From contig NZ_ATHQ01000001.1 in assembly GCF_000523275.1 (NCBI RefSeq), positions 1,021,289 to 1,061,288 on the forward strand: a stretch of 40,000 bases of DNA, in the 5' to 3' direction. The stretch is from Lebetimonas sp. JH292 (GTDB taxonomy: Bacteria > Campylobacterota > Campylobacteria > Campylobacterales > Nautiliaceae). The position numbers were made by a program, and so were the translations under genes. The notes below the pieces were generated by a model that was not told where the DNA came from, made no database searches, and was given only the letters and a program-made list of their open reading frames with translations. Of the stretch, positions 4,435 to 37,298 are shown in pieces (positions within the stretch are counted from its first letter, which is position 1; each line of letters begins with the position of its first letter).

Positions 4435-4605
4435 TTTCTTCTCCTGTATATTTTATTACGCTATGCCCGTTCGGCTTGCGTATCCCTACTTATCACACAG
4501 CGCATTGCAATTATAAATAAAAATTAATTTTTTTGCAAGAGATAAAAAATAAGGCACTGACTAAATGTAAAAGATTTTTTAGAAATTGTTTTTCTCTTTA
4601 ATTTG

Positions 4606-4614
4606 TGGTATAAT
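4606..4614 (+). promoter_or_regulatory. Extended -10 promoter (TGgTATAAT) for the 4732 gene
   Basis: TGGTATAAT at 4606-4614, about 118 nt upstream of the ATG at 4732. Confidence 0.5.
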
Positions 4615-4731
4615 AATTATAAGATAAGTTTTACTTATCTTAAGCTTTATTTAAGTTTTAGGCTGTATAATTACACCGAATGTGTATTCATTAGGTTAAT
4701 GAATGCACACATAAAATTAAAAGGAGAAAAC

Positions 4732-5076
4732 ATGAGACGCTTAGCAAAAATGTTGGTAGCTGGAGCGCTACTTGCAAGTGTCACAGCAACAATGGCATTT
4801 GCTGATTACAACAAAGGATTTAAGTATTACCAAAAATATGTGAAAAGAGCTTCACATGTTAAAGGTACTGAATTCCTTAAAATCATAGGTGCAAAAACAC
4901 CTGACGACATTAATGCATTACTTAAAAATAATGCAAAACCGTTAATTTCTCTACTTGAAAAAAAAGGTCAAAAAAAAGCTGCTAAAGCTATTGAAAAAAT
5001 CGTTAAAAAACATAAACTTAACGATTTAAAAGACTTTTTGGTAGGAATGGTTAACGGTAAAATTCCAGCTGGCTGA
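4732..5076 (+). CDS. Small secreted/periplasmic lysine-rich protein, function unknown
   Basis: I chose the internal ATG at 4732, preceded by AAAGGAGAAAAC. It gives MRRLAKMLVAGALLASVTATMAFA-DY, a classical signal peptide. There is no CxxCH heme motif. The ORF-track start at 4603 adds a low-complexity extension with no RBS. Confidence 0.7.
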   Translation: MRRLAKMLVAGALLASVTATMAFADYNKGFKYYQKYVKRASHVKGTEFLKIIGAKTPDDINALLKNNAKPLISLLEKKGQKKAAKAIEKIVKKHKLNDLKDFLVGMVNGKIPAG

Positions 5077-5145: not shown

Positions 5146-5244
5146 GGAGGGGATGTGATCCTGGTGGACACCCCGGGCTTCAAACCCGGTGGGGCGGCAG
5201 GTGACTGTTTGCCCGGAAGGTTCGATTCCTTCCCCCTTCCGCCA
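5146..5244 (+). tRNA. selC: tRNA-Sec (anticodon UCA)
   Basis: 99 nt, GGAGGGGA...CCCCTTCC-G-CCA. Extended acceptor stem, anticodon stem CCGGG/CCCGG around the loop CUUCAAA (UCA), a very long variable arm (GGGCGGCAG-GTGA-CTGTTTGCCC), T-arm GGAAGG-TTCGATT-CCTTCC, and an encoded CCA. It lies next to selA/selB. Confidence 0.9.
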
Positions 5245-5315: not shown

Positions 5316-6182
5316 TTATTTGTGAAAAGTTTTAATTGCTTTTTCTTTGAACTCTTCGATTTTTTGAAGAAGTTTTTTAAATATATTTTCTGTTTTACTG
5401 CCGTTTTTAATCTCTTTTTCAAGCTGTGTAATTTGTTCTTTTAACATTTTGTATGTTGTATCGCTTGTGCTTGTATATCCTAAAATTTCAGCTAAAGATA
5501 TCTGTTTTTTTGCTTCATCTAAATATTTTAAAGCCTGGTTTTTGTCTTTTTTAACACTTTCACTGGCATTTTTAACAAGGGCTTGAGCTTTGATAAGCGG
5601 GATAGGAATAACGGTATCTGTTTCTACCAATGTTGAAAGCGCCATTGACAAAACATCTTTTGCTTCTTTGGCTTTTCCTTCATTTATATATTTTAACGCC
5701 AAATTAAGAGCCGCCGGATATGTTGCAATAGGCAAATTGATTGTTTTGATCACAATTTCGCTTCTCAGAGAATTTAATACTTCCCTTGCCTGAGGTAATT
5801 TATTTTCTGCTACAAGTATTTTTACTTCATTTACAAGTTTTTTTACGTCTTTTACATCCCCTTGATATTGATATGCGTTAATTTGAACATCAACAGGTAA
5901 AAGATAAGGTGTATTAGGTCTATTTAATAAATCGCTAAGTTCCCCAATAGCTTTTTTTATTGAGTCTTTTGCTTTTTTAGTATTTTTTCCGCTTATATAT
6001 ATTAATGTATCCTGGGTATATTGGATAGCTTTTACCGCTTCATTTGCAAGTTCAGTGTTTTGGGCTTTTTTTTCCGCTTTGATTACGGCTTTTTTACTCA
6101 CCTGAGCGGTTTTTGCATCTGCGGCTAAACTAGATGATACCAAAATGGAAGCCAATACCACTGATGTTAAAATTCTTTTCAT
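5316..6182 (-). CDS. Secreted all-helical protein, tentatively YfdX-like; function unknown
   Basis: 288 aa with signal peptide MKRILTSVVLASILVSSSLAADA and helical, K/E-rich repeats. The segment NLPIATYPAALNLALKYINEGKAKEAKDVL...TDTVIPIPL recalls YfdX-family proteins; this is from memory and unverified. Confidence 0.6.
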   Translation of the reverse strand: MKRILTSVVLASILVSSSLAADAKTAQVSKKAVIKAEKKAQNTELANEAVKAIQYTQDTLIYISGKNTKKAKDSIKKAIGELSDLLNRPNTPYLLPVDVQINAYQYQGDVKDVKKLVNEVKILVAENKLPQAREVLNSLRSEIVIKTINLPIATYPAALNLALKYINEGKAKEAKDVLSMALSTLVETDTVIPIPLIKAQALVKNASESVKKDKNQALKYLDEAKKQISLAEILGYTSTSDTTYKMLKEQITQLEKEIKNGSKTENIFKKLLQKIEEFKEKAIKTFHK

Positions 6183-6616: not shown

Positions 6617-7966
6617 ATGAATCTGTTTAGACAAATTCCAAAAGTGGATAAACTTTTAAAAAATAAAAATCTTCAAGATATTCCAGAGAATGTTTTGCTT
6701 TATTCCATACATTCAGTTTTGAATGAACTCAGAGAAAAAATAAAAAATAATAAAATAGATAAAATAGATGAAAATAAAATAATAAATGAAATTGAAAAAA
6801 AAGCTTGCGGCATATTAAGCCCTTCTTTAATTAATGTAATTAATGCCACAGGTGTTACAATCCATACAAATCTCGGCAGAAGTTTGATAGATGAAGAGAT
6901 TTTTGATGAAGCAAAGAAAGTCAGTACGCATTACTGTAATTTAGAATATGATTTGGATAAAGGAAAAAGGGGGGACAGGTATCATCACAGTGCGAAACAT
7001 TTGAGTTTTCTTTTTGGGTGTGAAGATGCGTTGGTTGTTAATAATAATGCGGCGGCTGTATTTTTGATTTTAAACACATTTGCAAAAGACAAAGAGGTTA
7101 TAGTGTCAAGAGGCGAACTTGTTGAAATAGGGGGAAGTTTCAGAGTGCCTGAAGTTATGAAAGCAAGCGGTGTAAAACTTGTTGAAGTCGGAACTACAAA
7201 TAAAACAAAACCAAAAGATTATGAAGAGGCAATCAATGAAAATACAGCAATGCTTATGAAAGTTCACAAATCAAATTATACTATTGAAGGGTTTAGTGAA
7301 GAAGTTTATATTGATGAAATTGTCAATCTTTCCCGTAAACATAATCTGCTTGATTATTATGATTTGGGAAGTGCATATATTCCAAAGCTTCCTTACGGAC
7401 TTTCAAACGCTGAGCCTTCAATTAATGATATAATGAAATTTTTACCTTCACTTATTAGTTTTAGCGGTGATAAACTTTTTGGAGGAGTTCAGGCGGGAAT
7501 AATTCTTGGTAAAAAAGAACTTATTAATAAACTTAAAAAAAATCAGATATTAAGGATGTTCAGGGTTGATAAAATTACACTCTCCCTTATTCAGGCAACC
7601 ACTCTTGCATATATTAAAAAAGAATATGAAAAAATTCCAACCCTCAGACAGATTTTTGCATCTATTGATGAACTCAAAAACAGGGCAAAAAAAATACTTA
7701 GCCTAACACCAGCCCTAAGGGCTAATATAAAAGAATCAAAAACATACGTAGGCGGGGGGACTATGCCAAATAAAGCCATTCCTACCGTGGTAATTGAAAT
7801 TGAAGGAAATGCTGTGAATTGGGAGAAAAAATTTAGAGAAAAACTTGTTATCGGTAGAATAGAAAATGAACATTTTGTGCTTGATGTAAGAACAATTCAG
7901 GATGATGAAATAGAAAAACTTGCAAATATAATAAATAAATTAATAAGCTGTGAGGTGAAAAGATGA
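6617..7966 (+). CDS. selA: L-seryl-tRNA(Sec) selenium transferase (selenocysteine synthase)
   Basis: 449 aa. INATGVTIHTNLGRS and the PLP-lysine motif FSGDKLFGGVQAGII match SelA. The stop overlaps the selB start (ATGA). Confidence 0.93.
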   Translation: MNLFRQIPKVDKLLKNKNLQDIPENVLLYSIHSVLNELREKIKNNKIDKIDENKIINEIEKKACGILSPSLINVINATGVTIHTNLGRSLIDEEIFDEAKKVSTHYCNLEYDLDKGKRGDRYHHSAKHLSFLFGCEDALVVNNNAAAVFLILNTFAKDKEVIVSRGELVEIGGSFRVPEVMKASGVKLVEVGTTNKTKPKDYEEAINENTAMLMKVHKSNYTIEGFSEEVYIDEIVNLSRKHNLLDYYDLGSAYIPKLPYGLSNAEPSINDIMKFLPSLISFSGDKLFGGVQAGIILGKKELINKLKKNQILRMFRVDKITLSLIQATTLAYIKKEYEKIPTLRQIFASIDELKNRAKKILSLTPALRANIKESKTYVGGGTMPNKAIPTVVIEIEGNAVNWEKKFREKLVIGRIENEHFVLDVRTIQDDEIEKLANIINKLISCEVKR

Positions 7967-9792
7967 GAAATATTATTATTGGAACCGCAGGGCATGTAGA
8001 CCATGGAAAAACATCTTTGATTGAGGCTATGACCGGGTATAACGGGGACGAGCTTAAAGAAGAAAAAGAGAGAGGAATTACAATCGATTTAAGCTTTACA
8101 AATATGAAAAGAGATGATGTAAATGTGGCATTTATAGACGTTCCGGGGCATGAAAAACTTGTAAAAAATATGATTAGCGGGGCGTTTGGATTTGACGCTA
8201 CGCTTTTTGCAATAGATGCAAACGAAGGTGTTATGCCGCAGACCATAGAGCATTTGGAAGTACTTGATATTTTAAAAGTTAAAAATATCATTGTGGCTTT
8301 GACAAAAATAGATTTGGCAAGTGAAGAAATTATTGAAAAAAGAAAAAAAGAGATAAAAGAATTAATAGCTAAATTTAAGAATTTAAAGCTTCTTGATATT
8401 ATCCCGACTTCCACTAAAATGCCTGAGACTATAGAAAATCTTAAGAATTATCTGTTTAACCTGCCTCCGAGAAATATTACACATTCCAAATTTTTCAGAT
8501 ACTATATAGACAGGGTGTTTTCCCTAAAAGGAATAGGAACTGTTGTAACAGGGACTGTTTTAAGCGGAAAAGTCAGACTTAAAGATAAAGTTTATATTAA
8601 TGAAACGGCTACTGTTACAACGGTTAAAAACCTGCAGGTTCATGGTGAAAATGTTAGTGTTGCCCATACCCATCAAAGACTTGCCATTAATCTCAATATT
8701 TCACACAATGAACTTAAAAAAGGATATTTGTTAAGTACAAAAGGATACTTAAGAGGATTTAAATTAATTGATGTTTATATTTCCCCGGTCGAAGGTAAAG
8801 AAATTAAGCATAATATGGGAGTTTTATTTATAAGCGGTGCAAAAAGAATACCTGCGAAAATTTTGATGTTTGATTCAAATGCAAAAGAAGGTTTTGCAAC
8901 TATGAAGTTGCAGGAAAAAGGATTTTTTGTTTATGAAGATCCGTTTGTGGTGCTTCATAAAGGAAGGGTTATCGGAGGAGGCGAAATTTTAAATCCTATA
9001 AGCGACCCTATTAAAAGAAATAAAAAATTATTGCTGTTAAATGCTTTAAAACAAAGGGATTTCCAAAAAGCATTTTCTATTTTGGTTGAAAATCACAAAA
9101 AAGGTTTCGGACTTCTTCAAAGTTATCAGAGATTTAATTTTTCGCCCGATGAAGCTCTCGGTATTGCAAAAACATTAAAAAATGTCTTTATAGATGAAGA
9201 AAATTATAATATTTTTTCAATGGATGTAAAAAAAGAGATAGAAAATGTGGTAAAAGAAACTTATGAAAAAAACAAATTTGCCTTTCTTTCTCCTGCATCA
9301 CTGAAACTCAGATTAAAATGGGCGAGTGAAAAATTGATTGAAACTGTTTTAAATGAATTTGTGGAAGAAGGATTTTTAATAAAAGAAGGCAATATTTATA
9401 AAAGAAAAGATCTTGGTGAAGTGAATATTGAAAAATCAGTCGAGCACAGGCTTTATTCGCTTTTGGATAATTCTGGATTAACTCCCGAAGCACCTTATAA
9501 TATATACGAAAAATTAAATATTGACAGAAAAGTGGGCGATCAGGCTATGAAGAACCTGACTAAGGCTAAAAAAGTTGTAAGGCTTGCCCATAATTTGTTT
9601 GTAAGTGATAAAAATATAAATTATGCAATGAAAAAAATGCGGGAAATTATGGAGAAAAAAGGATATATTGATATTAAAACATTTAAAGAAGAGATGCCTA
9701 TGAGCAGAAAATATATTGTGGCTTATCTTGATTATTTGGACAATATGGGGGATATTGTTAAAGTAGATAATAAAAGGTATTTGAAGAAATAA
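7963..9792 (+). CDS. selB: Selenocysteine-specific elongation factor SelB
   Basis: 609 aa. GTPase motifs GTAGHVDHGKTSL, DVPGHEKL and TKID, followed by a long C-terminal winged-helix extension typical of bacterial SelB (SECIS binding). Confidence 0.93.
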   Translation: MRNIIIGTAGHVDHGKTSLIEAMTGYNGDELKEEKERGITIDLSFTNMKRDDVNVAFIDVPGHEKLVKNMISGAFGFDATLFAIDANEGVMPQTIEHLEVLDILKVKNIIVALTKIDLASEEIIEKRKKEIKELIAKFKNLKLLDIIPTSTKMPETIENLKNYLFNLPPRNITHSKFFRYYIDRVFSLKGIGTVVTGTVLSGKVRLKDKVYINETATVTTVKNLQVHGENVSVAHTHQRLAINLNISHNELKKGYLLSTKGYLRGFKLIDVYISPVEGKEIKHNMGVLFISGAKRIPAKILMFDSNAKEGFATMKLQEKGFFVYEDPFVVLHKGRVIGGGEILNPISDPIKRNKKLLLLNALKQRDFQKAFSILVENHKKGFGLLQSYQRFNFSPDEALGIAKTLKNVFIDEENYNIFSMDVKKEIENVVKETYEKNKFAFLSPASLKLRLKWASEKLIETVLNEFVEEGFLIKEGNIYKRKDLGEVNIEKSVEHRLYSLLDNSGLTPEAPYNIYEKLNIDRKVGDQAMKNLTKAKKVVRLAHNLFVSDKNINYAMKKMREIMEKKGYIDIKTFKEEMPMSRKYIVAYLDYLDNMGDIVKVDNKRYLKK

Positions 9793-9802
9793 GAAGGAAA
9801 AA

Positions 9803-10846
9803 TTATTTAACAACTAAAGGAAACTCTTTGAATTCCTTAACAGTTGCTATTGCTTTAGCACTCACTCCTTCATTTTCCATTCTTTTTAAAAGTTCATTAA
9901 CTTTTTCCTGAGAGGCGCTGATTAAAAGCCCTCCGCTTGTCTGGGCATCAAATAGTATCATCTGCTCTTCAAAACTGAGTTCTTTTTCAAATTTTACTTT
10001 TCCTTCTAAAAATAGCTGGTTATTGTAACTTCCGGCAGGAATTATTCCCATGGATGCCTGATTAATCGCTTCTTTTAAGAAAGGCACTTTTTCAAATTCT
10101 ATTTCTATAGTGAAATTGTTAGCGCTCATTTCATACAAATGTCCTAAAAGACCAAATCCTGTAACATCTGTCATTGCATTTACACCGATTTCCCTTGCGA
10201 TAAGACTTGGTTTGTAATTTAATGTCCTTAAAATTTCAGCTACTTCACTGGCTACTGTTTTATCTATCAAATCCGCTTTTATTGCTGTTGTTAAAATTCC
10301 CATTCCAAGAGGTTTTGTTAAAACAATTACATCATCTTTTTTTAATGTATTGTTTCTTATAATTTTTTGAGGATGAATTGTACCTGTAACGCTAAGTCCG
10401 TAAATCATTTCCGGAGTTTCTATTGTATGTCCTCCGGCTAATACACCGCCGCACTCTTTTATTTTATTTTCACCGCCTTTTAAAATTTCATTTAATACAT
10501 CTTTTCCGTGATGACAGTTATCAAATCCGACTAAATTAAGGGCAGTTTTAACATCTCCTCCCATTGCAAACACATCGCTTAGGGAATTTGCAGCTGCAAT
10601 TTGTCCGTAAATAAACGGGTCGTCAACAACAGGTGTAATAAAATCGGCTGTTTGTACAAGTGCTATATCATCTGTTAATTTATAAACACTTGCATCCTCA
10701 TTTCCTTCAAATCCGACTATTAAATTTTCGTTTTTTCCATCAAGAACTTTTGTAGCTTTGTTTAGCTCCTCCGGAGCCAATTTCCCTGCTCAGCCGGCTG
10801 CTCTTACATATTTTGTAAGTTTGGCGTTGTTATTTAATTTAAGCAT
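9803..10846 (-). CDS. selD: Selenide, water dikinase (selenophosphate synthetase), selenocysteine-containing form
   Basis: The ORF track starts at 10780. Reading upstream in frame gives ATG (10846-10844) [31 protein letters not shown], with TGA at 10792-10790 as codon 19. This aligns with the E. coli SelD active-site loop (..YSHGAGCGCKI..). An RBS (AAAGGA) lies 6 nt before this ATG. The rest of the protein is the PurM-like SelD fold ([23 protein letters not shown]). Confidence 0.9.
10762..10780 (-). promoter_or_regulatory. SECIS-like hairpin downstream of the selD UGA
   Basis: On the minus strand, 10 nt after the UGA: TTGGCTCC-GGA-GGAGCTAA. That is 8 bp including one G-U pair, or 7 bp with the loop CGGAG. 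Confidence 0.55.
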
Positions 10847-10855
10847 ATATATCCT

Positions 10856-11212
10856 TTAAAATGTTATAACTTTGTCTGCTTCTTCAACCCAGGCAGCCAA
10901 GTCTTTCATTGTAGCTTTGATTTCAGGTGCAAAATATGGCTCGTTTTTAAATAATCCGCATCTTGCCTGACAAGTGCCGCATACTTTTAATTTTATACCG
11001 TTTTGATACATTTCTTTAAGCATTGCAACCAAGTCGTTGTCATAATTTTCAGGTTTTTTATTGCAATCCCTTGCCATATCCACGGCATCATTCATTAAAA
11101 AAATTCTTACATCGTTTCCTTTTTCAAACAAAACTTTTGCAAGTCTAAGTCCGTTCCAAGCTACATCGCTTCCGTCATATGGTTCGTGATTGAATATAAT
11201 TAAAATTTTCAT
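10856..11212 (-). CDS. DsrE/DsrF-like (YchN-fold) sulfur/selenium relay family protein
   Basis: 118 aa. MKILIIFNHEPYDGSDVAWNGLRLA... and the conserved Cys region KLKVCGTCQARCG are typical of the DsrE/YchN fold. It ends 9 nt upstream of the selD ATG. Confidence 0.75.
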   Translation of the reverse strand: MKILIIFNHEPYDGSDVAWNGLRLAKVLFEKGNDVRIFLMNDAVDMARDCNKKPENYDNDLVAMLKEMYQNGIKLKVCGTCQARCGLFKNEPYFAPEIKATMKDLAAWVEEADKVITF

Positions 11213-11490
11213 TTAACCTCCTTAATTTCTTTTATTTTTCCTTTATAACCTACGATTTCTATTGCGTGTAACAGTTTTTGAGGTGTTGTTTTTGTATCGT
11301 CAAAAATTACCGTTGCTATTTTAGTGTTTAGTAGTACTTTTGCTTTTATAACGCCCGGTGTCATTTTTAAACTTCTTTTTACAGCCATTGTACATAATGG
11401 ACAAGTCATTCCACTTACTTTAATAATAGCCACTTTTTCAGCTCCAAAAAGTGAACAAAATAATACTAAATTTAAAATAATTTTTTTCAT
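11209..11490 (-). CDS. Periplasmic heavy-metal-associated (HMA) domain protein, MerP-like
   Basis: 93 aa. Signal peptide MKKIILNLVLFCSLFGA followed by an HMA fold with GMTCPLC. There is a 4-nt overlap (ATGA) with the downstream DsrE-like gene. Confidence 0.8.
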   Translation of the reverse strand: MKKIILNLVLFCSLFGAEKVAIIKVSGMTCPLCTMAVKRSLKMTPGVIKAKVLLNTKIATVIFDDTKTTPQKLLHAIEIVGYKGKIKEIKEVK

Positions 11491-12075
11491 TTACTCTCCC
11501 ATAAACAGATATTGAGCCCAAAAAGGGTAAGTTAGCATAATTAATACAAAAACAGTACCAATACTTAAATATTTTACATAATTTTTGCAAATACTGCCAC
11601 TGCAAACCGGTCTTTTTCTAAGTTTAAAGAAATAATTTATCCACAAATAAACAATAATTATAACAGCTGCAATTGTAAAATAAATTCTATATGGTGCGAA
11701 AATATGTAAAAATGAAAGACTTCCGACACTTACTCCAAAAATCAAAAAAAGCAAAGGCCCTAAACAGCATGTGCTTGCCAAAATTGCAGTTATTGCCGCA
11801 CCTGCTATTAAAGCCCAAAAAGATTTTGATTTTTTACTTTCATTTTGAATTTCGCAACTGTAACCTTTTATAGCATTTATTATTGTATCTTTTCCTTCTT
11901 TTTTTTCATTAAAATAAATTCCTTGCGTTTGCAAAAATCTTTTTACATTCTGAATAGAAGAGAAGGAATTAAGTTTTATTTCAATAATTCCTTCTTCTAT
12001 TTCTTCTAATGCCTCTTTTGTTTTAAGAACAGGTTCTGGACAAGCTAAATTTCTTAAATCCAGCTTTTTTACCAT
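11491..12075 (-). CDS. Fusion protein: N-terminal TusA/SirA-like domain + C-terminal MerT-like three-helix membrane domain
   Basis: 194 aa. Residues 1-80 form a TusA fold with LRNLACPEPVLKTKEAL (CPxP motif). Residues 85-194 contain TM1 with the vicinal Cys pair ILASTCCLGPLLFLIFG (MerT signature), TM2, the loop RKRPVCSGSICKNY (second Cys pair) and TM3. Confidence 0.75.
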   Translation of the reverse strand: MVKKLDLRNLACPEPVLKTKEALEEIEEGIIEIKLNSFSSIQNVKRFLQTQGIYFNEKKEGKDTIINAIKGYSCEIQNESKKSKSFWALIAGAAITAILASTCCLGPLLFLIFGVSVGSLSFLHIFAPYRIYFTIAAVIIIVYLWINYFFKLRKRPVCSGSICKNYVKYLSIGTVFVLIMLTYPFWAQYLFMGE

Positions 12076-13199
12076 TAAAACAGTTCCTGAGAAGTAATTT
12101 TATATTCAAAACTTTTTGGAACATAATAATTTAACACATCATCATTTACCTCGGCATACGGATAACCAAACATATTTAGAGGGTATTGAACAGGTTTTGG
12201 ATAAAGTATGAAATCTCTTGCATGGTTAAATCCAACCCAGTTCATTTCCCATGAATGCAGATATTTTTTTACTAATTTTTGAACTTTTGGGTGGTTGTAA
12301 GGATATTTTTCAACTAATTCAAGTTTTGTAACATCAGCAGGGTCTGTAGGTATCCATCCAGCCCCTGGAATATAATATTCAGCCCTGCAGTGTTGCCAAG
12401 TGGTAATATTTGCAAAACCTTTACTATCACTTTTTCCAAGAGCTTTGTCAAAATGGCTTTTTCCAAGTCTGATACCAAAAACCTCTCTTGCAGGAATACC
12501 TGCCGCTCTTGTTAGGGCGGTAAAAAGTGAGCTTAAATCTGTACATTTTCCTCCAAACCATCCGTTTTTATAAATATATTCAGCTGTCGGTTTTTTTTGC
12601 TCTTGCATCATTTTGCCAACTTCACCTTTTCCGCATCCAATAGTTTTTGGATTTCTGAATGTATGGGCTGTACACCATAAATAAATTGCTTTTACTTTTT
12701 CAAACCTATCTTTTTTACCTTTTGTGATAAGTTCTGCCACTTCTTTTACAATTCCGTCAGTAGGAATATGGGCAGTAGGCTCAAGATATTTTAACACTTC
12801 TTTTGGATATGGCAGATTTTTTTTGCTGGCTTCTTTTATTAGTTCTAATGGAACACTTCTATCTTTTGTTTCAATTTCCATTTCCATTGTCAAAATTTTA
12901 GGCATAGCTGATTTTTCCCAATATGCATAAAAAGTATTTGCATCATATTCATTTTTATTGTTAATATCATAATCGTTATAATTTCCGCCAAATCTTAAAA
13001 ATTTAACTTTTTGATATGGTGCATTATATGGAAGCGGGTTCCATAATCTTGCAGGAAAACCTGGCTCGTCGTATTTGATGTTGAAATAATATTCAACCTT
13101 GAATCTTCTATAGCTTTCATCTTTTGCACTTACAATACCAGGTATAGAAACTGCCATACCTAAGGCTGCACCTGTTTTTAAAAACTCTCTTCTTTCCAT
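12075..13199 (-). CDS. TAT-exported transglutaminase-like cysteine protease-fold protein
   Basis: 374 aa. Twin-arginine signal MERREFLKTGAALGMAVSIPGIVSA. Transglutaminase-core triad context: GGKCTDLSSLFTALTRAAGIPAREVFG (Cys), WQHCRAEYYIPGAGW (His), IPTDPAD (Asp). Confidence 0.8.
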   Translation of the reverse strand: MERREFLKTGAALGMAVSIPGIVSAKDESYRRFKVEYYFNIKYDEPGFPARLWNPLPYNAPYQKVKFLRFGGNYNDYDINNKNEYDANTFYAYWEKSAMPKILTMEMEIETKDRSVPLELIKEASKKNLPYPKEVLKYLEPTAHIPTDGIVKEVAELITKGKKDRFEKVKAIYLWCTAHTFRNPKTIGCGKGEVGKMMQEQKKPTAEYIYKNGWFGGKCTDLSSLFTALTRAAGIPAREVFGIRLGKSHFDKALGKSDSKGFANITTWQHCRAEYYIPGAGWIPTDPADVTKLELVEKYPYNHPKVQKLVKKYLHSWEMNWVGFNHARDFILYPKPVQYPLNMFGYPYAEVNDDVLNYYVPKSFEYKITSQELF

Positions 13200-13204
13200 T
13201 ATTT
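13175..13204 (-). repeat. Copy 1 of a 30-nt exact direct repeat (AAATAATGGAAAGAAGAGAGTTTTTAAAAA) covering the RBS-proximal region and MERREFLK
   Basis: Identical by direct comparison to 15946-15975. It spans the start codon and twin-arginine motif of the transglutaminase-like gene. Confidence 0.9.
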
Positions 13205-13211
13205 ACTCCTT

Positions 13212-15970
13212 TTAAATTTTTTGTATTTTTATTTTTGTTGAACTAAAATCTGGTATACCTCCGATCGGATCAACCAAAGGTAAATCATAAAATTTTTTGT
13301 CTAATTTACTAATTTTATTTACACAAATTCCCATTGCTCTTTTTTTATCAGGAATTACGTAATTATTTTTAGTAACAAATAAGCACAGCATCCTTTGGCA
13401 ACAAAACATTTACTATTTTTACTTTGTCATAGTCTTTTAATCCTAATTTTTTAGCATCAATTGGGTTTATTTTTAATGTAATATCTGGTTCGTAATAAAG
13501 GGCTTTATCTAAACATATAGTTCTTGATTGTGTATGTAATGCCGATTTGTATGATGTTAAATAGAAATTTTTTTCTCCTATTATGGTATTTGTAGAAGTT
13601 GCAAGTTTTTCATTATATATATGTATTTTTTCAAAACCAAATATATAATTGTCATTTTCATCAAACCAATTGTTCTCTTTAAATACACCTCCTTTTGCTA
13701 AAACATTACATACTTTTTCCCATTCTTCTGATTGTAAAATATGTTTGTGTTTTGTAACAATATAATTTTTTTCTACATAATCAATAGTTTTTTTATCAGC
13801 CTTAGATATTTTTGCATTGTGTGCAAGATTGTAAATACCTCTTAGATAATAATCTTCTTGGGTATTTAAAGAAAATTTATTGTTTATAGCTTTTTCTCCA
13901 TAACCAGGTAATTTTAATTTTTTAGAAAGGTCAATCAAAAATTTTTCTAAATTAATATTATTTTTTGTGAGAGGCTCTATTATAGGTGTTCTAACACCAG
14001 TAAAATGACCTCCAGGAGCATGTGGATTTAAAAAGCCATAATGTCCTGTCTTAATCTGCATAGATATTTGTTTCATTAATAGTTGTGTCTATTGATACAA
14101 ACAGAGGAACTTTTGTTTTATTTTTTAACGTAGATTCAAATCTGTATCCTCCAGGCAGGATATTTTTGGTCTATACCGCTCATTGCGGCTACACTTAATC
14201 CTCCTTTAGTAATAAATATCCTCCTTTTCTGTTTACATTTCCAATTAATGCATTTAACATAGAAATTGCATAACTTGCATAAGTTCCGTTTATATAGTTT
14301 CCTCCTCCATGATACGCAAAAGCTGCACTGTGTGGGGCAATGTTTTTTTTATTAACTCCGCATTCTTTAGCATAATCATCAATTGAATGTTCAAAAACAG
14401 AGTTTTTCATTATTTTAAATGCTGTAACTACTTTATTTTACCTTCATATTCTAATATTGTATTTTTAGAATAAGTTTTCCAATTTTCCATAAAATCATCA
14501 TTTTTTAGTCCAATATCTGACCCTCTTAAAAATTTTCCATAATTTTTGTTTTCTTTATCAATTATTACTAAATGTGTAGCATTTGAAAATGTTGATCTTT
14601 TTTTATTTTTAGCTTCTTCTAAGTTTTTTTCTAAGAGAATTGCTTTTGGAGCTTTTGGATCAATTAATACGATTTTTAAATCATTATTTGCAGTTCTTTT
14701 TGCAATTATACTTCCTGATGTATTTACTCCGAATAAATATTAGCACCAAATATTAACATATATTTACAATTTTGAAAATCTGCCTTCATTTCAGCTTCTT
14801 TTCCGTCTGTAAAAGCGTAATTACCCATTCTAAAGCCGATACCACATATATCAGTATGTGCAATATAATTTTTTGAACCGATAGAATTATAAACCCATCT
14901 TTTTATAAAATCTACTCTTCCTCCTTGGGAACGTCCTGTAAACCATACAAATTGGTTTCTTTTAGAACCTAATTCTTCAGCTTCTTTTCAGATAAAATAT
15001 CTTTTATGCCTGGATAATATGTTTCATCCCCTAAATGTTTAAAATTTTTACCTCCGAAAGCTATTTCATTTATTAAAGTATCCCAATCTATAGGTTCGAA
15101 TTTTCCGCTTCCTCTTTCACCGTTTTTAAAGGTTTTGTTATTCTGTAAGGATTATAAACATATTCATTATTCATTTGCGGTTTTGCACACGTTGATGCTG
15201 AATATTTAAAACTTTTTTCTATATCTGTTGAATAAGAAATTTGGTTGAAATCTCTATTATATGGGTGATAAGGATTTCCATCAACTTGTACACATTTGTT
15301 GTCTTTAACGGCTATTCTTAAACCGCATCTTGCATTACAAGCTAAACAGACGGTATTTACTATTTTATCTGCTTTTGGTTTTTTTGTTTCATAAAATCCA
15401 TATTTTTCTTTATAAATAGGTGTAACATCAGTAAAAGTCGCTAAATGGTGATAAAGTGCATATTTTAAAGTTGGATTGTTTTCTAGAAGTTCTTTTAATT
15501 GTCCTTTAGGATTTTTAAGATTTCCATAAACTAAAGCCCCGCCTGGGCAAATACTGACACATCTTGGAATGTCTCCTTGAATAATTCTGTCAAAACACAT
15601 ATCGCATTTTTTTGCTTTTTTATCAAAAACTATAGCGTCAAAAGGACAGGCTTTAGCACAACTTTGTTTATTTTCGGCACAATTGATATCACATTTGTCT
15701 TCATTTATTAATATAACTCCATCTTTTGCACAAATTGCAATATATTCAAACGCTCGGCACAAAAGTTTTTATTTTGAAAAACACTACATCATAAGGAAGA
15801 TTTTTTTCAAGTTGACATGCTGCCATACAGCTTTTGCAGTCTAAACATCTGCTTTGGTCATATATTAAAACAGGCATAAATTCATTTTCTTCAGCATTAG
15901 CAAATTTAAATGTTGTTGTGCTGATTAAAACACTAAATGCTCCAATTTTTAAAAACTCTCTTCTTTCCAT
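13212..15970 (-). pseudogene. Decayed gene for a TAT-signal 4Fe-4S ferredoxin fused to a Mo/W-bisPGD (DMSO-reductase-superfamily, Psr/Phs/Ttr-like) oxidoreductase
   Basis: Stitching the minus-strand frames gives one continuous homolog: MERREFLK (TAT), CLDCKSCMAAC, CAKACP, CDMC...CVSICP (ferredoxin), CLACNARCG (MopB N-terminal cluster), ITKPLK/GERGSGKFEPIDWDTLINEIA, FVWFTGRSQGG, YIAHTDICGIGF (Cys ligand region), MLIFGANIY, IVLIDP, VVTAFKIMKNSVFEHSIDDYAKECGVNKKNI, GNVNRKGG, VPLFVSIDTTINETNIYAD, KLGLKDYDKVKIVN, DPIGGIPDFSSTKIKIQKI. At least 8-9 frame breaks or stops interrupt it, near 15746-15781, 15121-15133, 14981-14992, 14722-14740, 14428-14442, 14192-14210, 14158-14170, 14048-14063 and 13369-13409, mostly in A/T runs. 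Confidence 0.8.
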
Positions 15971-15975
15971 TATTT
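15946..15975 (-). repeat. Copy 2 of the 30-nt exact direct repeat (start region of the Mo-oxidoreductase relic)
   Basis: Identical to 13175-13204. Confidence 0.9.
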
Positions 15976-15978
15976 TCC

Positions 15979-16569
15979 TTATAAGCTAATAGTATTTTTG
16001 TGAAGTAGAAAGTCCATTGTGTCGTATGCGTTTCCTATTTCTCCGACTTTTAGCTCTTCTGGAGGAATTTTGTAAAAATTCATACAAACGCCGCATGAAT
16101 AAATTTTTACGCCTCTTTTTTCAAATTCTTTTAAAATTTCTATTGTTTTTTCATTTTTTGTTGTTAAAAATACACCTCTGTTTACACATACAATAATTTC
16201 AGGAAGTTTTTTAAATTCAAGTGTTGTTTTTAAAAATCCTTCTATTAATATGTGTCCAAGCTCGCCTTCTCCAACTTTGTCATCTTTTATAAAAAGCACC
16301 TTATCTAAAAATTTATCATTATCTTCTTCTTTTGGTGCAATACTGCATTCATAACCTTTTACAATCCTGATTATGGTTTCACCATTATCCAGTTTTTCTT
16401 CTTCTGCAACCAGTCCCTGGTTTGCCGCAAATCTTTTAACGTTTTGAACAGATGAAATAGAATTTACCAAAACCTCCAAAATTCCTTCGTCCATCTCTTC
16501 AAGTGCTTTTTTTGTATCAAGCACAGGTTTTGGACATGCCGCATTTCTGCAGTCTATTTTTTTATTCAT
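15979..16569 (-). CDS. yedF: YedF-like selenium-metabolism-associated protein (TusA/SirA-like N-domain + DsrE-like C-domain)
   Basis: 196 aa. The N-terminus CRNAACPKPVLDTKKALEEMDEG (CPxP) is paralogous to the N-domain of 11491..12075. The C-terminal half, with IIVCVNRGVFL and KIYSCGVCMNFY, is DsrE-like. Length and architecture fit the roughly 200-aa YedF family (TIGR03527, recalled from memory). Confidence 0.72.
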   Translation of the reverse strand: MNKKIDCRNAACPKPVLDTKKALEEMDEGILEVLVNSISSVQNVKRFAANQGLVAEEEKLDNGETIIRIVKGYECSIAPKEEDNDKFLDKVLFIKDDKVGEGELGHILIEGFLKTTLEFKKLPEIIVCVNRGVFLTTKNEKTIEILKEFEKRGVKIYSCGVCMNFYKIPPEELKVGEIGNAYDTMDFLLHKNTISL

Positions 16570-17329
16570 TTGTTACTCCTTTTGTTGTTTCGTATCCGGC
16601 AAGAGCCGCTCCGAATGCCCCCATCATCTGAGGATATTCCGGTGTGTATACTTCTTTTTTTAATTTTTTTGAAAGCAATTCCCTAAGAAGTGAATTTTTA
16701 GCTCCTCCCCCGGTAAAAACGATTTTGTCTTCCGGTCTAATGCTTTTGGCCATTCCGGCTAATCTTGATGCTATTGAATCAATAATTCCGTATCCTATAT
16801 TTTCAGGCTTTTCTTTTTTTGCCATAAGAGAAATTACTTCTGATTCGGCAAATACCGCACACATTGAAGATATCTGGATTGTTTTGTCAGCTTTTTTACA
16901 AAAATCTCCAAACTCATCAAGCGGAATCTGGAGTTTTACAGCCGCCATTTCTATAAATTTTCCGGTTCCGGCCGCACATTTGTCGTTCATTTTGAAATTA
17001 TCAAAATTTCCGCCTTCGGTTACTTTTATTACCTTGCTGTCCTGTCCTCCTAAATCAATAACAGTTCTTACATCCGGAAAGAAAAAATAAGCCCCTTTTG
17101 CATGGGCTTTTATTTCGCTGATTACAGGAACGTCAAACGCTTCTTGCATCATATATCTTCCATAACCTGTTGCAACCAGGGTTTCAATAGGTTTATCTTT
17201 TAAATATTCTTTTACCTGTTCGTCGGGATTTATAACGGTATCTAATACTTTAATGTCAATTATGTTTTTATTATCATCAATTCCAACAATTTTTGTATAG
17301 GTTGAGCCTATGTCAACTCCGTAATACAT
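16562..17329 (-). CDS. BcrAD/BadFG-type ATPase: activator of a (R)-2-hydroxyacyl-CoA dehydratase-like or double-cubane reductase
   Basis: 255 aa. ASKHA fold with GVDIGSTYTKIV and DLGGQDSKVI. The two cluster-bridging Cys contexts are MNDKCAAGTGKF and ISSMCAVFAESEV, and FTGGGAKN is present. Confidence 0.85.
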   Translation of the reverse strand: MYYGVDIGSTYTKIVGIDDNKNIIDIKVLDTVINPDEQVKEYLKDKPIETLVATGYGRYMMQEAFDVPVISEIKAHAKGAYFFFPDVRTVIDLGGQDSKVIKVTEGGNFDNFKMNDKCAAGTGKFIEMAAVKLQIPLDEFGDFCKKADKTIQISSMCAVFAESEVISLMAKKEKPENIGYGIIDSIASRLAGMAKSIRPEDKIVFTGGGAKNSLLRELLSKKLKKEVYTPEYPQMMGAFGAALAGYETTKGVTNE

Positions 17330-18642
17330 TAAAATCCTTTAAATTTAACGTTCTTTTTAAATGAAATACTTTCCAAAAACGCTTCAACTCTTGTTTTAAT
17401 CTGACCCATATCTTCCATTGAATAATCAGATTCAATTCTTAAAACAGGAATATTTTCAGCCTGAAGTCTGTCTATTACTCTTTTTGATTCCACGTTGTAT
17501 GTATGACAAAAAGAGAGTGAATAATAAATAATACCGTCAGCTTTTCTTTCTTTATACATTTTGATTATTTTATCTATTCTATCATCATTTGGAGTAAAGC
17601 ATGCACAGTCTATTTTCATATATCTATCAAGCATATTATTCATTAAATCATCAATAGTTTCAGCTCCTTGGGTTTCAATATTGTCTTTATAATATCTGTG
17701 TCCGATACATGCTTCTTCGTTTATTATTACTCCACCGGTTGTTTCAACAATATGATGAAGCTTCCAGTTTGGAGGTGCCATAGGTGTTCCAATTACCATA
17801 ATTCTCGGAGTATCTTTTTTTACAACAGAAACGCATTTTTTAATTCTTTCTTCAAGTTCGTCGCAAAGTTCATTTACTTTTTGTGTAAATCTTTCAGGGT
17901 CGTCATAAAAAGAGATTTGGTTAATTAAAAGTCCGTCTTTTCCGCTGATAGGTACAACATCAGGATACATGCCCCTTAATTTGTCAAGACGCTGCATGGC
18001 TTCTCTTTTTTTGTTTATAATTTCAATTCCCTTTTTAAGCTCTTCAAATGTAAGTTCTTTTCCTATAATTGATTCAATGTGTTTTTTAAAATCATAAACT
18101 TCACTTTTCCAAAGTTCTTTTTCTTTTTCTCTTTTCATTTGAGGAATATGCATTACATGAGTTGGGTGCAATTCGTTTAAAATTTCCCATGTTTTTTTCT
18201 TAGCTTCGCAGCTTGTTTCCCCGTATATAAAATCTGAAGCCTGTGTATACGGACATGTTTTTTGAACTTTAAATCCATACGCAGATTTAATTAAAGGGCA
18301 TATATTTCTTGGCAAATCTCTTTCGGCATCTGCAATAGAAAATTCAGCCCCGCCGCATAATCCGTAACATACTCCATCAGCCCCGACAACAATTTCTTCC
18401 GGGACAAATATACAAAAAGTTCCAACTAAAGGTTTTCCTTCTTTTTTCTTTTCTAAAATTTCTTCTATTCTTTTACCGTGTATTTCACTCATTACATAAT
18501 CAAAATATTCCATTGCTTTTGGTCTGTTTTCCTGCTTTAAAAAAAATTCAGGATATATTTCACCCAGAGCAGCCAAAAGTTCATTGTGTTTTTCTATATC
18601 CATACCAAGTTCTTGATACATAGGTGTGTAATCTTTAGACAT
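17329..18642 (-). CDS. 2-hydroxyacyl-CoA dehydratase (HGD-D) family protein, single-subunit type; candidate double-cubane-cluster reductase
   Basis: 437 aa, Cys-rich ([58 protein letters not shown]). A single HGD-D gene paired with one activator ATPase, rather than an alpha/beta pair, matches the DCCP arrangement. Confidence 0.75.
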
Positions 18643-18795
18643 ACTTATCCTTTTTTAATTTTTTTAATTTTTATTTTTTTAGGATAAGCCTTATCCTTTT
18701 AACAACATTTTATCTTGAAGGTTTTAGAAGTACATCATGAAGCTTTTAGGAGTTTATGCCTCATGTGTTTCCCAGCCTGGGAGCTTAATTAGAGA

Positions 18796-18801
18796 ATTAT
18801 A
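18796..18801 (-). promoter_or_regulatory. Possible -10 box (TATAAT) for the 18642-9803 gene string
   Basis: A minus-strand TATAAT about 150 nt upstream of the ATG at 18642. No -35 element was evaluated, and read-through from the Crp-family gene is equally possible. Confidence 0.3.
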
Positions 18802-33288: not shown

Positions 33289-34017
33289 ATGATAAAAGAA
33301 TTAATAGAAAAATATAAAAACGATGAAAATAAATTAACTTGTGCAAAAGCTTATGTAGTTGCTAAAAAAGCTGGGGTTGAACCTATCGTTGTAGGAAAGA
33401 TGGCTGATGAAATGGGTGTTAGGATTACTGACTGCGGTCTGGGACAGTTTGGAGGGCTTGATTTTACGGACAATTATGAAAAAGAAATTGTTGATGAGCT
33501 TGAAAAATTAGCTGATGATAAAAAAAGGGTTTTTTGCAAAGATGCAAGAAAACTTGCCGAAAAATATAATCTAAAAAAAGTAAGAAGTGCAATAAAAGAT
33601 AACGGATTTGAGGTAATATACTGCGAACTTGGTGTTTTTAAAGAAAAAAAACGTCCACGTGCTTTTATTAAAACAAAAGTCTGGATAGAAAATCAAAAAG
33701 GTGAATTACTGTTTGGAAAAGGAAAAACAGAAATTTTGGAGTTGATAGAAAAAGAAGGTTCGATTGCAAAAGCGGCTGAGAAAATGGGACTTAATTATAA
33801 AAAAGCCTGGTCGCATATCAAAACACTTCAGAAAAACCTTGATGATGAACTGGTAACCGTAGAAAAAGGTGTAAAAGGCGGCACATATTTAACTCCCAAG
33901 GCAAAGGAGTATATTGAAATTTTTAAAGAATTGGAAAGTGAAATTCAGGAATTTGCCAATAAAAGGTTTAAAGAGCTGTTTTTAAAAAAATTAAAAGGCC
34001 CTAAGAAGAAGAATTAA
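33289..34017 (+). CDS. Atypical ModE-family regulator: duplicated Cys-containing N-terminal module + ModE-type wHTH, no Mop/TOBE domain
   Basis: 242 aa. Residues 135-215 (GKTEILELIEKEGSIAKAAEKMGLNYKKAWSHIKTLQKNL...GVKGGTYLTPKAKEYI) align with the E. coli ModE N-terminal HTH (GSISQGAKDAGISYKSAWDAINEMN...GGKGGGGAVLT). Residues 15-120 contain two copies of a roughly 40-aa motif, C..A...A...........G..I..C.LG.F. Confidence 0.7.
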   Translation: MIKELIEKYKNDENKLTCAKAYVVAKKAGVEPIVVGKMADEMGVRITDCGLGQFGGLDFTDNYEKEIVDELEKLADDKKRVFCKDARKLAEKYNLKKVRSAIKDNGFEVIYCELGVFKEKKRPRAFIKTKVWIENQKGELLFGKGKTEILELIEKEGSIAKAAEKMGLNYKKAWSHIKTLQKNLDDELVTVEKGVKGGTYLTPKAKEYIEIFKELESEIQEFANKRFKELFLKKLKGPKKKN

Positions 34018-34672
34018 AAAGATGATTAATTATATCAATATTTAATTTATATTTTCTCTTTGGCAGTTTTGTAATAATATTTTTATCCTGCAAATCTTTA
34101 AACAGTTTTATCAAGGTAGGTTTGCTGATATCAATTCTTTTCATTATTTCAGGATATAAAAGTGAAAAATTGTAATTATCATCCAAAGAATTTACTATAA
34201 GTTTAATAACTTCCAATTGTTTGCTTTCGCACACTAAAGAAGCTAATTTAAATAAAATAGTAGAATTTTCCAATTCTTTTTTTTGGTATTTAGGAAGCAG
34301 TGTTTCATAAATGCTGTCTAATAATTCTTTTATTTTTATCGGTTTTACTAAGTAATTTGAAACTTTTTCTTTTATTGCCTCAAGTAAATAATCTGTTTCG
34401 GTATAGGCGGTTGTTAAAATAAAAGGAATTTTAAAACCCTGATTTTTTAAAAAAGAGATAAATTCAATTCCGTTTTTATCTTCTATTAAAATGTCGCTTA
34501 TAATTAAATCTATATGGTTTTCTTTTAATATTTTATAAGCTTCTTGTGTATTGCTTGCTAAATATATTTTTTTAACAAAATCTTTAAGAATTTCACCTAA
34601 AGTGTTTAATAAATTTTTATCATCTTCTATATATAAAATGTTAAAATTTTTCAAAATATCATAATTTTTCAT
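34001..34672 (-). CDS. Response regulator (receiver domain + C-terminal winged-helix-like domain)
   Basis: Receiver motifs ILYIEDD, DLIISDI and ILTTAY..KP. I prefer the start at 34672 (MKNYDILK...). The ORF-track start at 34708 adds 12 residues that overlap the kinase gene. Confidence 0.8.
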   Translation of the reverse strand: MKNYDILKNFNILYIEDDKNLLNTLGEILKDFVKKIYLASNTQEAYKILKENHIDLIISDILIEDKNGIEFISFLKNQGFKIPFILTTAYTETDYLLEAIKEKVSNYLVKPIKIKELLDSIYETLLPKYQKKELENSTILFKLASLVCESKQLEVIKLIVNSLDDNYNFSLLYPEIMKRIDISKPTLIKLFKDLQDKNIITKLPKRKYKLNIDIINHLFNSSS

Positions 34673-34695
34673 TACTCGCCTTTGGCAAAATGATT

Positions 34696-37209: not shown

Positions 37210-37260
37210 AACAAACCTTTTTAAAATTTTTACTTTTTAAGCTAACTTTAAGCTTTTTGG

Positions 37261-37269
37261 TGTTATAAT
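37261..37269 (+). promoter_or_regulatory. Extended -10 promoter (TGtTATAAT)
   Basis: TGTTATAAT lies 30 nt upstream of the ATG at 37299. Confidence 0.5.
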
Positions 37270-37298
37270 AGCATTAATCAAAAATTAAAAGGCTGCAA

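Follow-up and report, generated by a model that had tools for sequence, protein, structure and literature searches.

The selD gene of the vent bacterium Lebetimonas sp. JH292, which encodes selenophosphate synthetase, is the last in a series of nine successive minus-strand genes, and it is reasonable to propose that this operon is a route by which selenium is acquired and delivered to SelD via an inward, Mer-type cysteine relay. We regard this explanation as probable, though far from certain. The real unit is smaller than the operon: it is a Mer-like relay that occurs throughout the Campylobacterota, is nested within the SelD-carrying genomes and has a novel periplasmic partner, an exported transglutaminase-fold Cys enzyme (TGase), with YedF and DsrE as frequent companions. 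The double-cubane reductase component DCCP with its activase and a TtrBA-like molybdoenzyme are optional add-ons. The link of the cluster to selenium is well supported; we infer the inward direction, the substrate, each transfer step and the role of DCCP. The window, i.e. the whole stretch analysed, comprises 40,000 nt of contig NZ_ATHQ01000001.1 (GCF_000523275.1; positions 1,021,289-1,061,288, forward strand), and all positions given below without a contig or locus label refer to it. The operon contains the following features, for which the domains were called with profile hidden Markov models from Pfam and NCBIfam on all products:

18643..18800, minus strand: probable promoter with the -10-like TTATAAT and a structured leader of about 145 nt
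17329..18642, minus strand: DCCP, [8Fe-9S]-type anaerobic reductase component (PF06050, NF040772); 1-nt overlap with the activase gene (17329/17329)
16562..17329, minus strand: ATP-dependent activase (archerase) of the BcrAD/HgdC type (PF01869, TIGR00241); 8-nt overlap with the YedF gene (16562/16569)
15979..16569, minus strand: YedF, two-domain TusA-DsrE protein (TIGR03527); 8-nt gap to the pseudogene (15979/15970)
13212..15970, minus strand: pseudogene, found as tblastn pieces, of a twin-arginine translocation (TAT)-exported fusion of a TtrB-like ferredoxin and a TtrA-like oxidoreductase of the molybdenum bis-pyranopterin guanine dinucleotide (Mo-bisPGD) type; 12-nt gap to the TGase gene (13212/13199)
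12075..13199, minus strand: TAT-exported periplasmic TGase (PF01841, RR signal); 1-nt overlap with the fusion gene (12075/12075)
11491..12075, minus strand: TusA::MerT-like membrane fusion (PF01206 and PF02411 in a single open reading frame); abuts the MerP-like gene (11491/11490)
11209..11490, minus strand: periplasmic MerP-like HMA protein (PF00403, signal peptide); 4-nt overlap with the DsrE gene (11209/11212)
10856..11212, minus strand: small cytoplasmic DsrE-family protein (PF02635); 9-nt gap to the SelD gene (10856/10846)
9803..10846, minus strand: SelD, selenophosphate synthetase with selenocysteine (Sec) at residue 19 (TIGR00476)

According to the listing of open reading frames, the nine genes run from 18642 to 9803 with a widest gap of 12 nt and a largest overlap of 8 nt. 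Nine same-strand genes with all gaps ≤12 nt are an ordinary strong operon signature, though short gaps are common in this genome of 1.64 Mb (roughly 31% G+C, 99.7% complete). Scans for consensus promoters and terminators gave counts equal to those in shuffled sequence. An original prediction for this DNA had listed the same gene ends and starts, every one of which was reproduced, and its domain calls for the nine products were all recovered with the profile models. It had also treated the nine genes as one system, which did not hold up, because DCCP and activase are sporadic and the molybdoenzyme is optional and dead in this strain. Synteny in relatives shows accretion, so that a single ancestral unit of nine genes was rejected.

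The smaller unit emerged from a comparison of relatives' loci by tblastn with the operon products and from 80 loci fetched with a TGase profile. Within the Nautiliaceae, loci from four genera have the common order YedF, TGase, TusA::MerT, MerP, DsrE, SelD, usually with selA/selB adjacent. Three other families of the order share TGase, (TusA::)MerT and MerP, and SelD is adjacent in two of them. When all Campylobacterota loci with at least 1.8 kb downstream of TGase are considered, a MerT-like and/or MerP-like gene lies directly 3' of TGase in 40 out of 42; their labels include Nautiliaceae, Sulfurimonas, Sulfurovum, Sulfurospirillum, Nitratifractor, Hydrogenimonas and Arcobacter/Aliarcobacter. 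Good flanks on both sides are available for 22 loci, and 15 of these have SelD ≤8 kb from TGase. The arrangement of SelD varies, being downstream, divergent or convergent, often together with selA/selB and YedF. The two exceptions without MerT/MerP (L050:8001-11069 and L057:7609-12486; one labelled Sulfurimonas, one Campylobacterales) have TGase immediately next to YedF, DsrE and SelD or at most 3 kb away from them, which argues that the tie of TGase to SelD is independent of the Mer-like pair.

A census over about 36,000 genera, in which SelD within 5 kb was scored by likeness band and against random controls, points in the same direction. With TGase as query, SelD was that close in 3/210 carriers below 20% likeness, 9/75 at 20-39% and 6/9 at 40-59%, with fewer than 3 of 3 in the 60%+ band and 0 in the random control. 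For TusA::MerT the corresponding values were 48/285 (<20%) and 6/9 (20-39%), with fewer than 3 in the random control and under 5 carriers tried in each of the upper two bands. Close relatives of TGase and of the fusion are essentially confined to the Campylobacterota in this census.

Phylogenetic profiling was carried out on 301 Campylobacterota genomes of ≥90% completeness, with E <= 1e-75 defining a strong TGase match. Such matches occur in 114 genomes from 23 genera, and all 114 carry SelD according to a hand cross-check of two listings. SelD itself is present in 226 of the 301 genomes and 41 of 57 genera, and the 75 genomes without it have no strong TGase match. With SelD in 23/23 TGase genera versus a background of 41/57, chance is an unlikely explanation, though relatedness inflates the contrast. 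The genus g3 illustrates the pattern on a small scale: one species has both TGase and SelD and two have neither. Gene-neighbourhood and profile analysis, the type of check proposed along with the original prediction, revealed a conserved TGase-MerT-MerP group that often lies beside selD and has strong matches in SelD genomes only.

The two Mer-like proteins bear the Cys motifs of their namesakes. In the TusA::MerT fusion, a single open reading frame matches both PF01206 (60 bits) and PF02411 (47 bits; cut-off 32.9). Its Cys residues are C12 in the CPEP motif of the TusA domain, a CC pair (residues 103-104) in the first helix of the three-helix MerT-like part, and C158-x4-C163 in a basic loop. 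The N-terminus of MerT is located in the cytoplasm. By analogy, the TusA domain would be cytoplasmic and lie beside the Cys pair of the cytoplasmic loop. Both TusA-fused and unfused MerT forms occur across the Campylobacterota. The MerP-like protein (PF00403, 52 bits) has a signal peptide and a GMTCPLC motif, whose residues C30 and C33 are invariant in 26 sequences.

Homologues of the fusion are named 'mercury transporter MerT', 'TusA-related sulfurtransferase' or 'hypothetical' in the databases. The likeness to the mer operon lies in the GMTCxxC of a periplasmic HMA protein, in the helix-1 CC and the cytoplasmic-loop Cys pair of a three-helix membrane protein, and in the principle that a two-coordinate thiophilic species is handed between Cys pairs. 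On the other hand, the equivalog scores are far below the cut-offs for both MerT (NF010314, 51 vs 150) and MerP (TIGR02052, 61 vs 92.55), and MerA (TIGR02053) has no match in the window and a best score of 212 bits against a cut-off of 454 in the whole genome, so that no MerA was found (MerR and MerB were not searched for). The operon further differs from mer operons in the TusA domain fused at the cytoplasmic N-terminus, in the obligate upstream partner, i.e. the TAT-exported TGase-fold protein, and in having SelD instead of mercuric reductase. Sub-threshold matches of the MerP-like and MerT-like proteins to the UxxU metal-binding protein NF041115 and the MerT/CopZ fusion selenoprotein NF045683 suggest that Mer-like proteins recur in selenium users in more than one guise. 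The SAO locus of Clostridioides and others is another selenium-linked mix of Mer-like, DsrE-like and nearby double-cubane genes (bioRxiv 10.1101/2022.07.06.499078). It differs in gene content and taxa, and the operon has no ABC transporter, no MerB-like SaoL and no other Sao match. Identity with that locus was rejected, since the NCBIfam scan of all operon products gave no Sao model (SaoL, SaoP, SaoB, SaoD and others).

The periplasmic partner matches PF01841 with 70 bits (cut-off 23) and begins with a TAT signal (RREFLK). In an alignment of 37 sequences, which includes 35-45% identical ones from other phyla, the residues C189 (G-C-G), C219 (GGKC-D), H270-C271, D286, D289 and several Arg are invariant. 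The Cys-His-Asp triad is complete (C219, H270, D286/D289) and is predicted to be catalytic. A structure model (pLDDT 88.6) has a transglutaminase/cysteine-protease fold with an N-terminal beta-sandwich, to which 3isr (E = 1.5e-14) and the periplasmic domain of TgpA are the closest folds. A sequence search of the PDB with the TGase profile gave no match, and an Atlas search returned generic transglutaminase-like clusters only. Tandem TGase paralogues lie side by side in one genome (G302:C1:906642-909118) and in five others of the same genus, g31.

A complex model of mature TGase and mature MerP reached an ipSAE of 0.85, compared with 0.01 for the best of three controls; this mark was reached by 58 of 80 solved complexes versus 2 of 110 mismatched pairs. 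Contacts agree 100% between runs, and the partner pLDDT is 92. On the MerP side the interface is formed by residues 29-32 and 34-35, which belong to the TCPLC loop, and on the TGase side by residues 143-144, 191, 193 and 336-359. As residues 191 and 193 flank the invariant G188-C189-G190, the model places the MerP loop beside C189. It supports binding of MerP by mature TGase through the CxxC loop, as a matter of model confidence and not of measurement. No solved TGase-HMA complex is known to us from which the prediction could have been drawn.

On the cytoplasmic side, SelD comprises 347 residues from the start at 10846 when the TGA at 10790-10792 is read as Sec (TIGR00476, 355 bits vs cut-off 125). 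This read-through translation places U at residue 19, as had been predicted, within the AAGUAGK of the N-terminal glycine-rich loop. An 8-bp hairpin lies 3' of the TGA, yet its fold energy is no better than that of shuffled sequences. The codon of SelD is the one Sec codon that was checked for in the operon, and it was found. YedF (TIGR03527, 193 bits vs cut-off 110) has CPKP at residue 12 and CGVC at 159-162, and its gene adjoins the conserved core in the Nautiliaceae loci examined. The DsrE-family protein (PF02635, 75 bits) carries the motif C78-x2-C81-x3-C85. In the Nautiliaceae loci its gene separates MerP from SelD, and in the two loci without MerTP it adjoins YedF, near SelD. Only two TusA domains are found in the whole genome, both encoded in the operon (YedF and TusA::MerT). 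YedF is a curated selenium-metabolism family and a partner of SelD by comparative genomics (TIGR03527; PMC5322559; PMC4607533). In a STRING table for Slackia the YedF associates include an activase, a '2-hydroxyglutaryl-CoA dehydratase subunit', SelD and a 'transglutaminase-like enzyme' (PMC5322559, Table 1).

The TusA-TusBCD-TusE and DsrEFH relays have the same TusA and DsrE folds, with a conserved active-site Cys in each. In contrast, the DsrE protein scores 32 bits against a cut-off of 89 for TusD and is also far below the cut-off for TusC, and TusE, MnmA and Dsr partners are missing from the window. Those relays stand in a sulfur context and the operon in a selenium context. YeeE/YeeD, the thiosulfate uptake pair TsuA/TsuB, follows the same logic of a membrane protein plus a TusA-like protein as YedE/YedF. 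In the latter, a proposed selenium transporter pair, a Cys-bearing membrane protein acts with a cytoplasmic TusA-like protein; the pair is encoded beside SelD and co-occurs with it (PMC5322559), and YedF itself is part of our operon. Unlike in either pair, the membrane component here is MerT-like rather than PF04143, and two periplasmic proteins are added. Neither this genome nor any of the 24 Nautiliaceae genomes searched has a match to the YedE/YeeE family (PF04143). In a neighbouring family, TGase is found in 62 and PF04143 in 6 species of a 63-species genus, whereas in a 34-species genus TGase is absent and 21 species have PF04143, frequently no more than a few kb from SelD. The TGase module and YedE look largely alternative in parts of the phylum.

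From these components we envisage the following relay. In the periplasm, TGase would capture a selenium species on its invariant Cys residues (C189/C219/C271, i.e. the Cys of the Cys-His-Asp triad and two more) and pass it on to the CxxC of MerP (C30/C33). The MerP-like protein would hand it to the CC pair C103/C104 in helix 1 of the MerT-like part, from where it would reach the cytoplasmic loop pair C158/C163 and the C12 of the fused TusA domain. TusA could then transfer it to C78/C81/C85 of DsrE and/or C159/C162 of YedF and finally to U19 of SelD. The carried form is likely selenium held between two thiolates (a selenotrisulfide, RS-Se-SR) or a perselenide; judging from known selenotrisulfide chemistry, the former would be an analogue of the Hg(II)-bis-thiolate, Hg(SR)2, of Mer proteins. 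Release of selenide needs low-potential reducing power, for which DCCP and its activase are a plausible provider: in Lebetimonas, DCCP and the ATPase beside YedF most likely reduce bound Se(0) or perselenide to selenide in an ATP-driven manner. Some relatives add a periplasmic TtrBA-like molybdoenzyme, which is inactive here. A periplasm-to-cytoplasm Cys relay had been suggested from the gene order; it agrees with everything that could be tested, including the conserved, SelD-nested trio and the TGase-MerP model, and its transfers are still conjectural. The molybdoenzyme step that was part of this suggestion did not survive, as the gene is dead in this strain and absent in most relatives.

Several points weigh against a selenium route into the cell. 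The direction of transport is not readable from sequence, and TusA and DsrE are classic sulfur carriers. The TGase/MerP/MerT trio is far from selD in many genomes, e.g. by about 400 kb in a member (G035) of the 63-species genus, and is not beside selD on several Sulfurovum and Sulfurospirillum contigs. The nesting test carries less weight than its counts imply, given the relatedness of the genomes and a SelD frequency of 75% among those searched in the phylum. Distant TGase homologues with 35-41% identity (Nitrosospira, Aquificota and others) have no MerT/MerP neighbours, and SelD is absent in two of the five genomes with such homologues that were tested. The TGase fold family overall is therefore not selenium-specific, and beyond the Campylobacterota its tie to selenium is not strict. 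The neighbours of these distant homologues reveal lineage-specific synteny and no shared partner. Many SelD-positive Campylobacterota have neither the module nor an adjacent YedE, and the module is therefore not required for selenium use. Finally, ATP-driven low-potential reduction by DCCP and activase is a guess.

The same proteins might run outward and serve selenium detoxification or homeostasis, with DsrE/YedF/TusA collecting surplus selenide or perselenide in the cytoplasm and passing it to MerT, MerP and the periplasmic enzyme, where Se(0) would be deposited. The evidence for a link to selenium fits either direction, and export has been raised as a possible role for the analogous YedE (Lin et al., PMC5322559). 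Nonetheless, we consider this scenario improbable: the genes are coupled translationally to that of SelD, which consumes selenide, and stand beside selAB and a Sec-dependent FdhF, and an ATP-driven reductase suits the making of selenide more than its disposal. In addition, the characterised MerT/MerP systems, those of the mer operon, import.

A different alternative concerns the DCCP part of the operon. DCCP scores 401 bits with PF06050 and 476 bits with NF040772 (cut-off 350), is the sole copy in the genome and has all seven cluster Cys (C77, C96, C115, C145, C312, C346, C379), whose spacing departs from the published one by a single residue, in the first interval. The activase (PF01869, 182 bits; TIGR00241, 248 bits vs cut-off 125) has Cys 118 and 157 in the contexts DKCAAG and SMCAVF. 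The DCCP/DCCP-R pair of Carboxydothermus hydrogenoformans likewise matches NF040772 and combines the 7-Cys motif with an adjacent archerase-type ATPase. Unlike that pair, the Lebetimonas DCCP is coupled translationally to YedF and opens an operon whose last gene is selD, which provides a concrete candidate substrate, namely carrier-bound Se(0) or perselenide. Within the Nautiliaceae searched, DCCP and activase occur in two Lebetimonas genomes only, that of the window and that of the sister species. Elsewhere they adjoin the locus on an Arcobacter contig (L064), in two genomes of g50 (G184 and G268) and on a Sulfurospirillum contig (L036). In Campylobacterota, every strong DCCP match (above about 440 bits) falls in a genome with SelD, in line with the survey of Haft and Gwadz cited below.

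It could be argued that SelD serves DCCP, with YedF as carrier and selenophosphate as the source of the selenium atom in a Se-bridged form of the [8Fe-9S] cluster. This is listed as a formal possibility by Haft and Gwadz, who considered possible reasons for their finding that SelD genomes contain 955 of the 970 strong NF040772 proteins (bioRxiv 10.1101/2022.07.06.499078, section 24), and the SelD operon opens with the genes for DCCP, activase and YedF. Against it, these authors themselves call it less likely, the solved DCCP cluster is all-sulfur, and most carriers of TGase, MerT, MerP and SelD are without DCCP, which is present in 57 of the 301 genomes compared with 114 for TGase. A 2020 review regards the physiological substrate of DCCP as unknown (PMC7317905, also for the solved cluster). 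We give this reading as little credence as the outward one; it is compatible with selenium acquisition by the rest of the operon.

Between YedF and TGase lies the remnant of the molybdoenzyme gene. The region 13212-15970 maps as ten tblastn pieces in alternating frames, with at least nine frameshifts, to intact orthologues of 1143 and 1155 residues (L020:4174-7605 and L018:10269-13736), in which a TtrB-like ferredoxin with a TAT signal is fused to a TtrA-like molybdoenzyme. Segments corresponding to orthologue residues of about 68-95, 674-729, 749-764 and 1043-1090 are lost. The mapping upholds the earlier view of a decayed oxidoreductase, and the enzyme consequently cannot act in Lebetimonas sp. 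JH292. For the L020 orthologue, TtrA (NF011567) is the best family with 479 bits, far from the cut-off of 1750, and TtrB reaches 72 vs 416; no TtrC-like membrane anchor was identified. Besides the decayed copy described here, two relatives have an intact gene and four have none. The sister species lacks it cleanly, and there YedF is separated from TGase by 12 nt (L016, 10067-10080). Judging from these sequences, the window appears to have caught the gene part-way through loss.

The kinship of this optional enzyme to tetrathionate and thiosulfate reductases is one reason to think of sulfur trafficking (persulfide, thiosulfate or polysulfide) by genes that merely lie near selD, in which the TtrBA-like and thiol enzymes would act on sulfur compounds of vents. 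TusA and DsrE are sulfur-relay families by their Pfam names, distant TGase homologues reside in SelD-less genomes, and the organisms are sulfur-rich. Yet strong TGase matches are confined to SelD-positive genomes and avoid all 75 SelD-negative ones, although every one of these organisms needs sulfur. Moreover, the adjacency to selD recurs in different gene orders, YedF matches a curated selenium-metabolism model, and no dsr, sox or tRNA-thiolation genes were found within the window. These observations leave a pure sulfur function slightly less probable than the two alternatives above. Weakest is a true uptake or buffering system for Hg or another thiophilic metal that sits near selD because selenide and selenoproteins are metal targets, a very unlikely case in spite of the Pfam MerT and HMA matches with all canonical Cys motifs, the homologues named as mercury transporters and the metal-rich vent fluids, given that no MerA was found in the genome, the MerT/MerP equivalog cut-offs are missed widely, mer operons have nothing that corresponds to the TusA fusion or to the coupling with DsrE, YedF and SelD, and the module is confined to SelD-positive genomes in the Campylobacterota profile.

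The operon had been placed between the Sec machinery and a Sec-dependent formate hydrogenlyase, and the flanks confirm this position. On one side are located:

5146-5240: tRNA-Sec gene selC (Rfam)
6617-7966: selA
7963-9792: selB

On the other side follow a CRP/FNR-type regulator, a Sec-containing FdhF, hydrogenase genes of the hyc/hyf type and focA. The tRNA-Sec gene is the sole match of the Rfam scan of the window. Around selC and ahead of selA lie an open reading frame without family match (4603-5076) and a gene for a YfdX-family protein (5316-6182). About 0.3-1.1 kb before the window start, at C1:1020159-1020993, a homologue of tRNA 2-selenouridine synthase (TIGR03167) constitutes a third selenium trait gene near the sel cluster; it is split over two adjoining frames (model positions 2-179 and 190-303), i.e. 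by a frameshift or a sequencing error. The region 34001-38000 has a G+C content of 23-25%, as against about 31% elsewhere, and gene strand switches, and may be an acquired segment.

The leader of the operon precedes the DCCP gene. It contains an upstream CUUAUCCU with two possible partners, namely the Shine-Dalgarno stretch AAGGAUAAG and an identical decoy copy of AAGGAUAAG just before CUUAUCCU. The decoy and the following CUUAUCCU could thus form a local hairpin, the alternative being the pairing of CUUAUCCU with AAGGAUAAG at the ribosome-binding site. The predicted fold has -28.5 kcal/mol (z = -2.97) with the Shine-Dalgarno stretch paired. In the sister species, the closest relative, whose proteins carry the name Lebetimonas natsushimae, the leader is 85% identical and the promoter and pairing elements are invariant; Caminibacter mediatlanticus TB-2 is a further relative. 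The motif occurs once in the genome and, across genomes, in the two Lebetimonas only. It looks like a translational switch-like element with a putative regulatory role.

According to reviews of 2022 (PMC9312934) and May 2026 (PMC13188914) and a mutant study of 2024 (PMC11097638), no specific, high-affinity selenium transporter is known in prokaryotes. A literature search for MerT/MerP or transglutaminase together with SelD, selenophosphate or selenium uptake found no description of the TGase/MerT/MerP module, with most subscription journals not covered, and a prior description of the core cannot be excluded. The claim that the whole combination is undescribed therefore has to be narrowed: links of YedF and of DCCP to SelD are published, and it is the TGase/MerT/MerP core that was not found described.

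Selective uptake of trace selenium and delivery of toxic selenide to SelD are acknowledged gaps, for which the trio is a testable candidate. It offers three defined, widely conserved genes whose chemical logic is clear and two of whose products have a predicted interface. We tentatively suggest, as a possibility rather than an expectation, that TGase, MerP and MerT(::TusA) are the first dedicated high-affinity bacterial selenium importer, which would carry a bis-thiolate (selenotrisulfide) adduct from the periplasm directly to a chain of cytoplasmic carriers leading to SelD, with DCCP and the ATPase freeing selenide in Lebetimonas. Carriers of the trio include contigs labelled Sulfurospirillum, Arcobacter and Campylobacteraceae, and some of these organisms may be amenable to genetics. 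If the proposal is true, the common database label 'mercury transporter' would be corrected. The operon also suggests a testable substrate for double-cubane reductases, and, if confirmed, this would be the first physiological function of double-cubane proteins.

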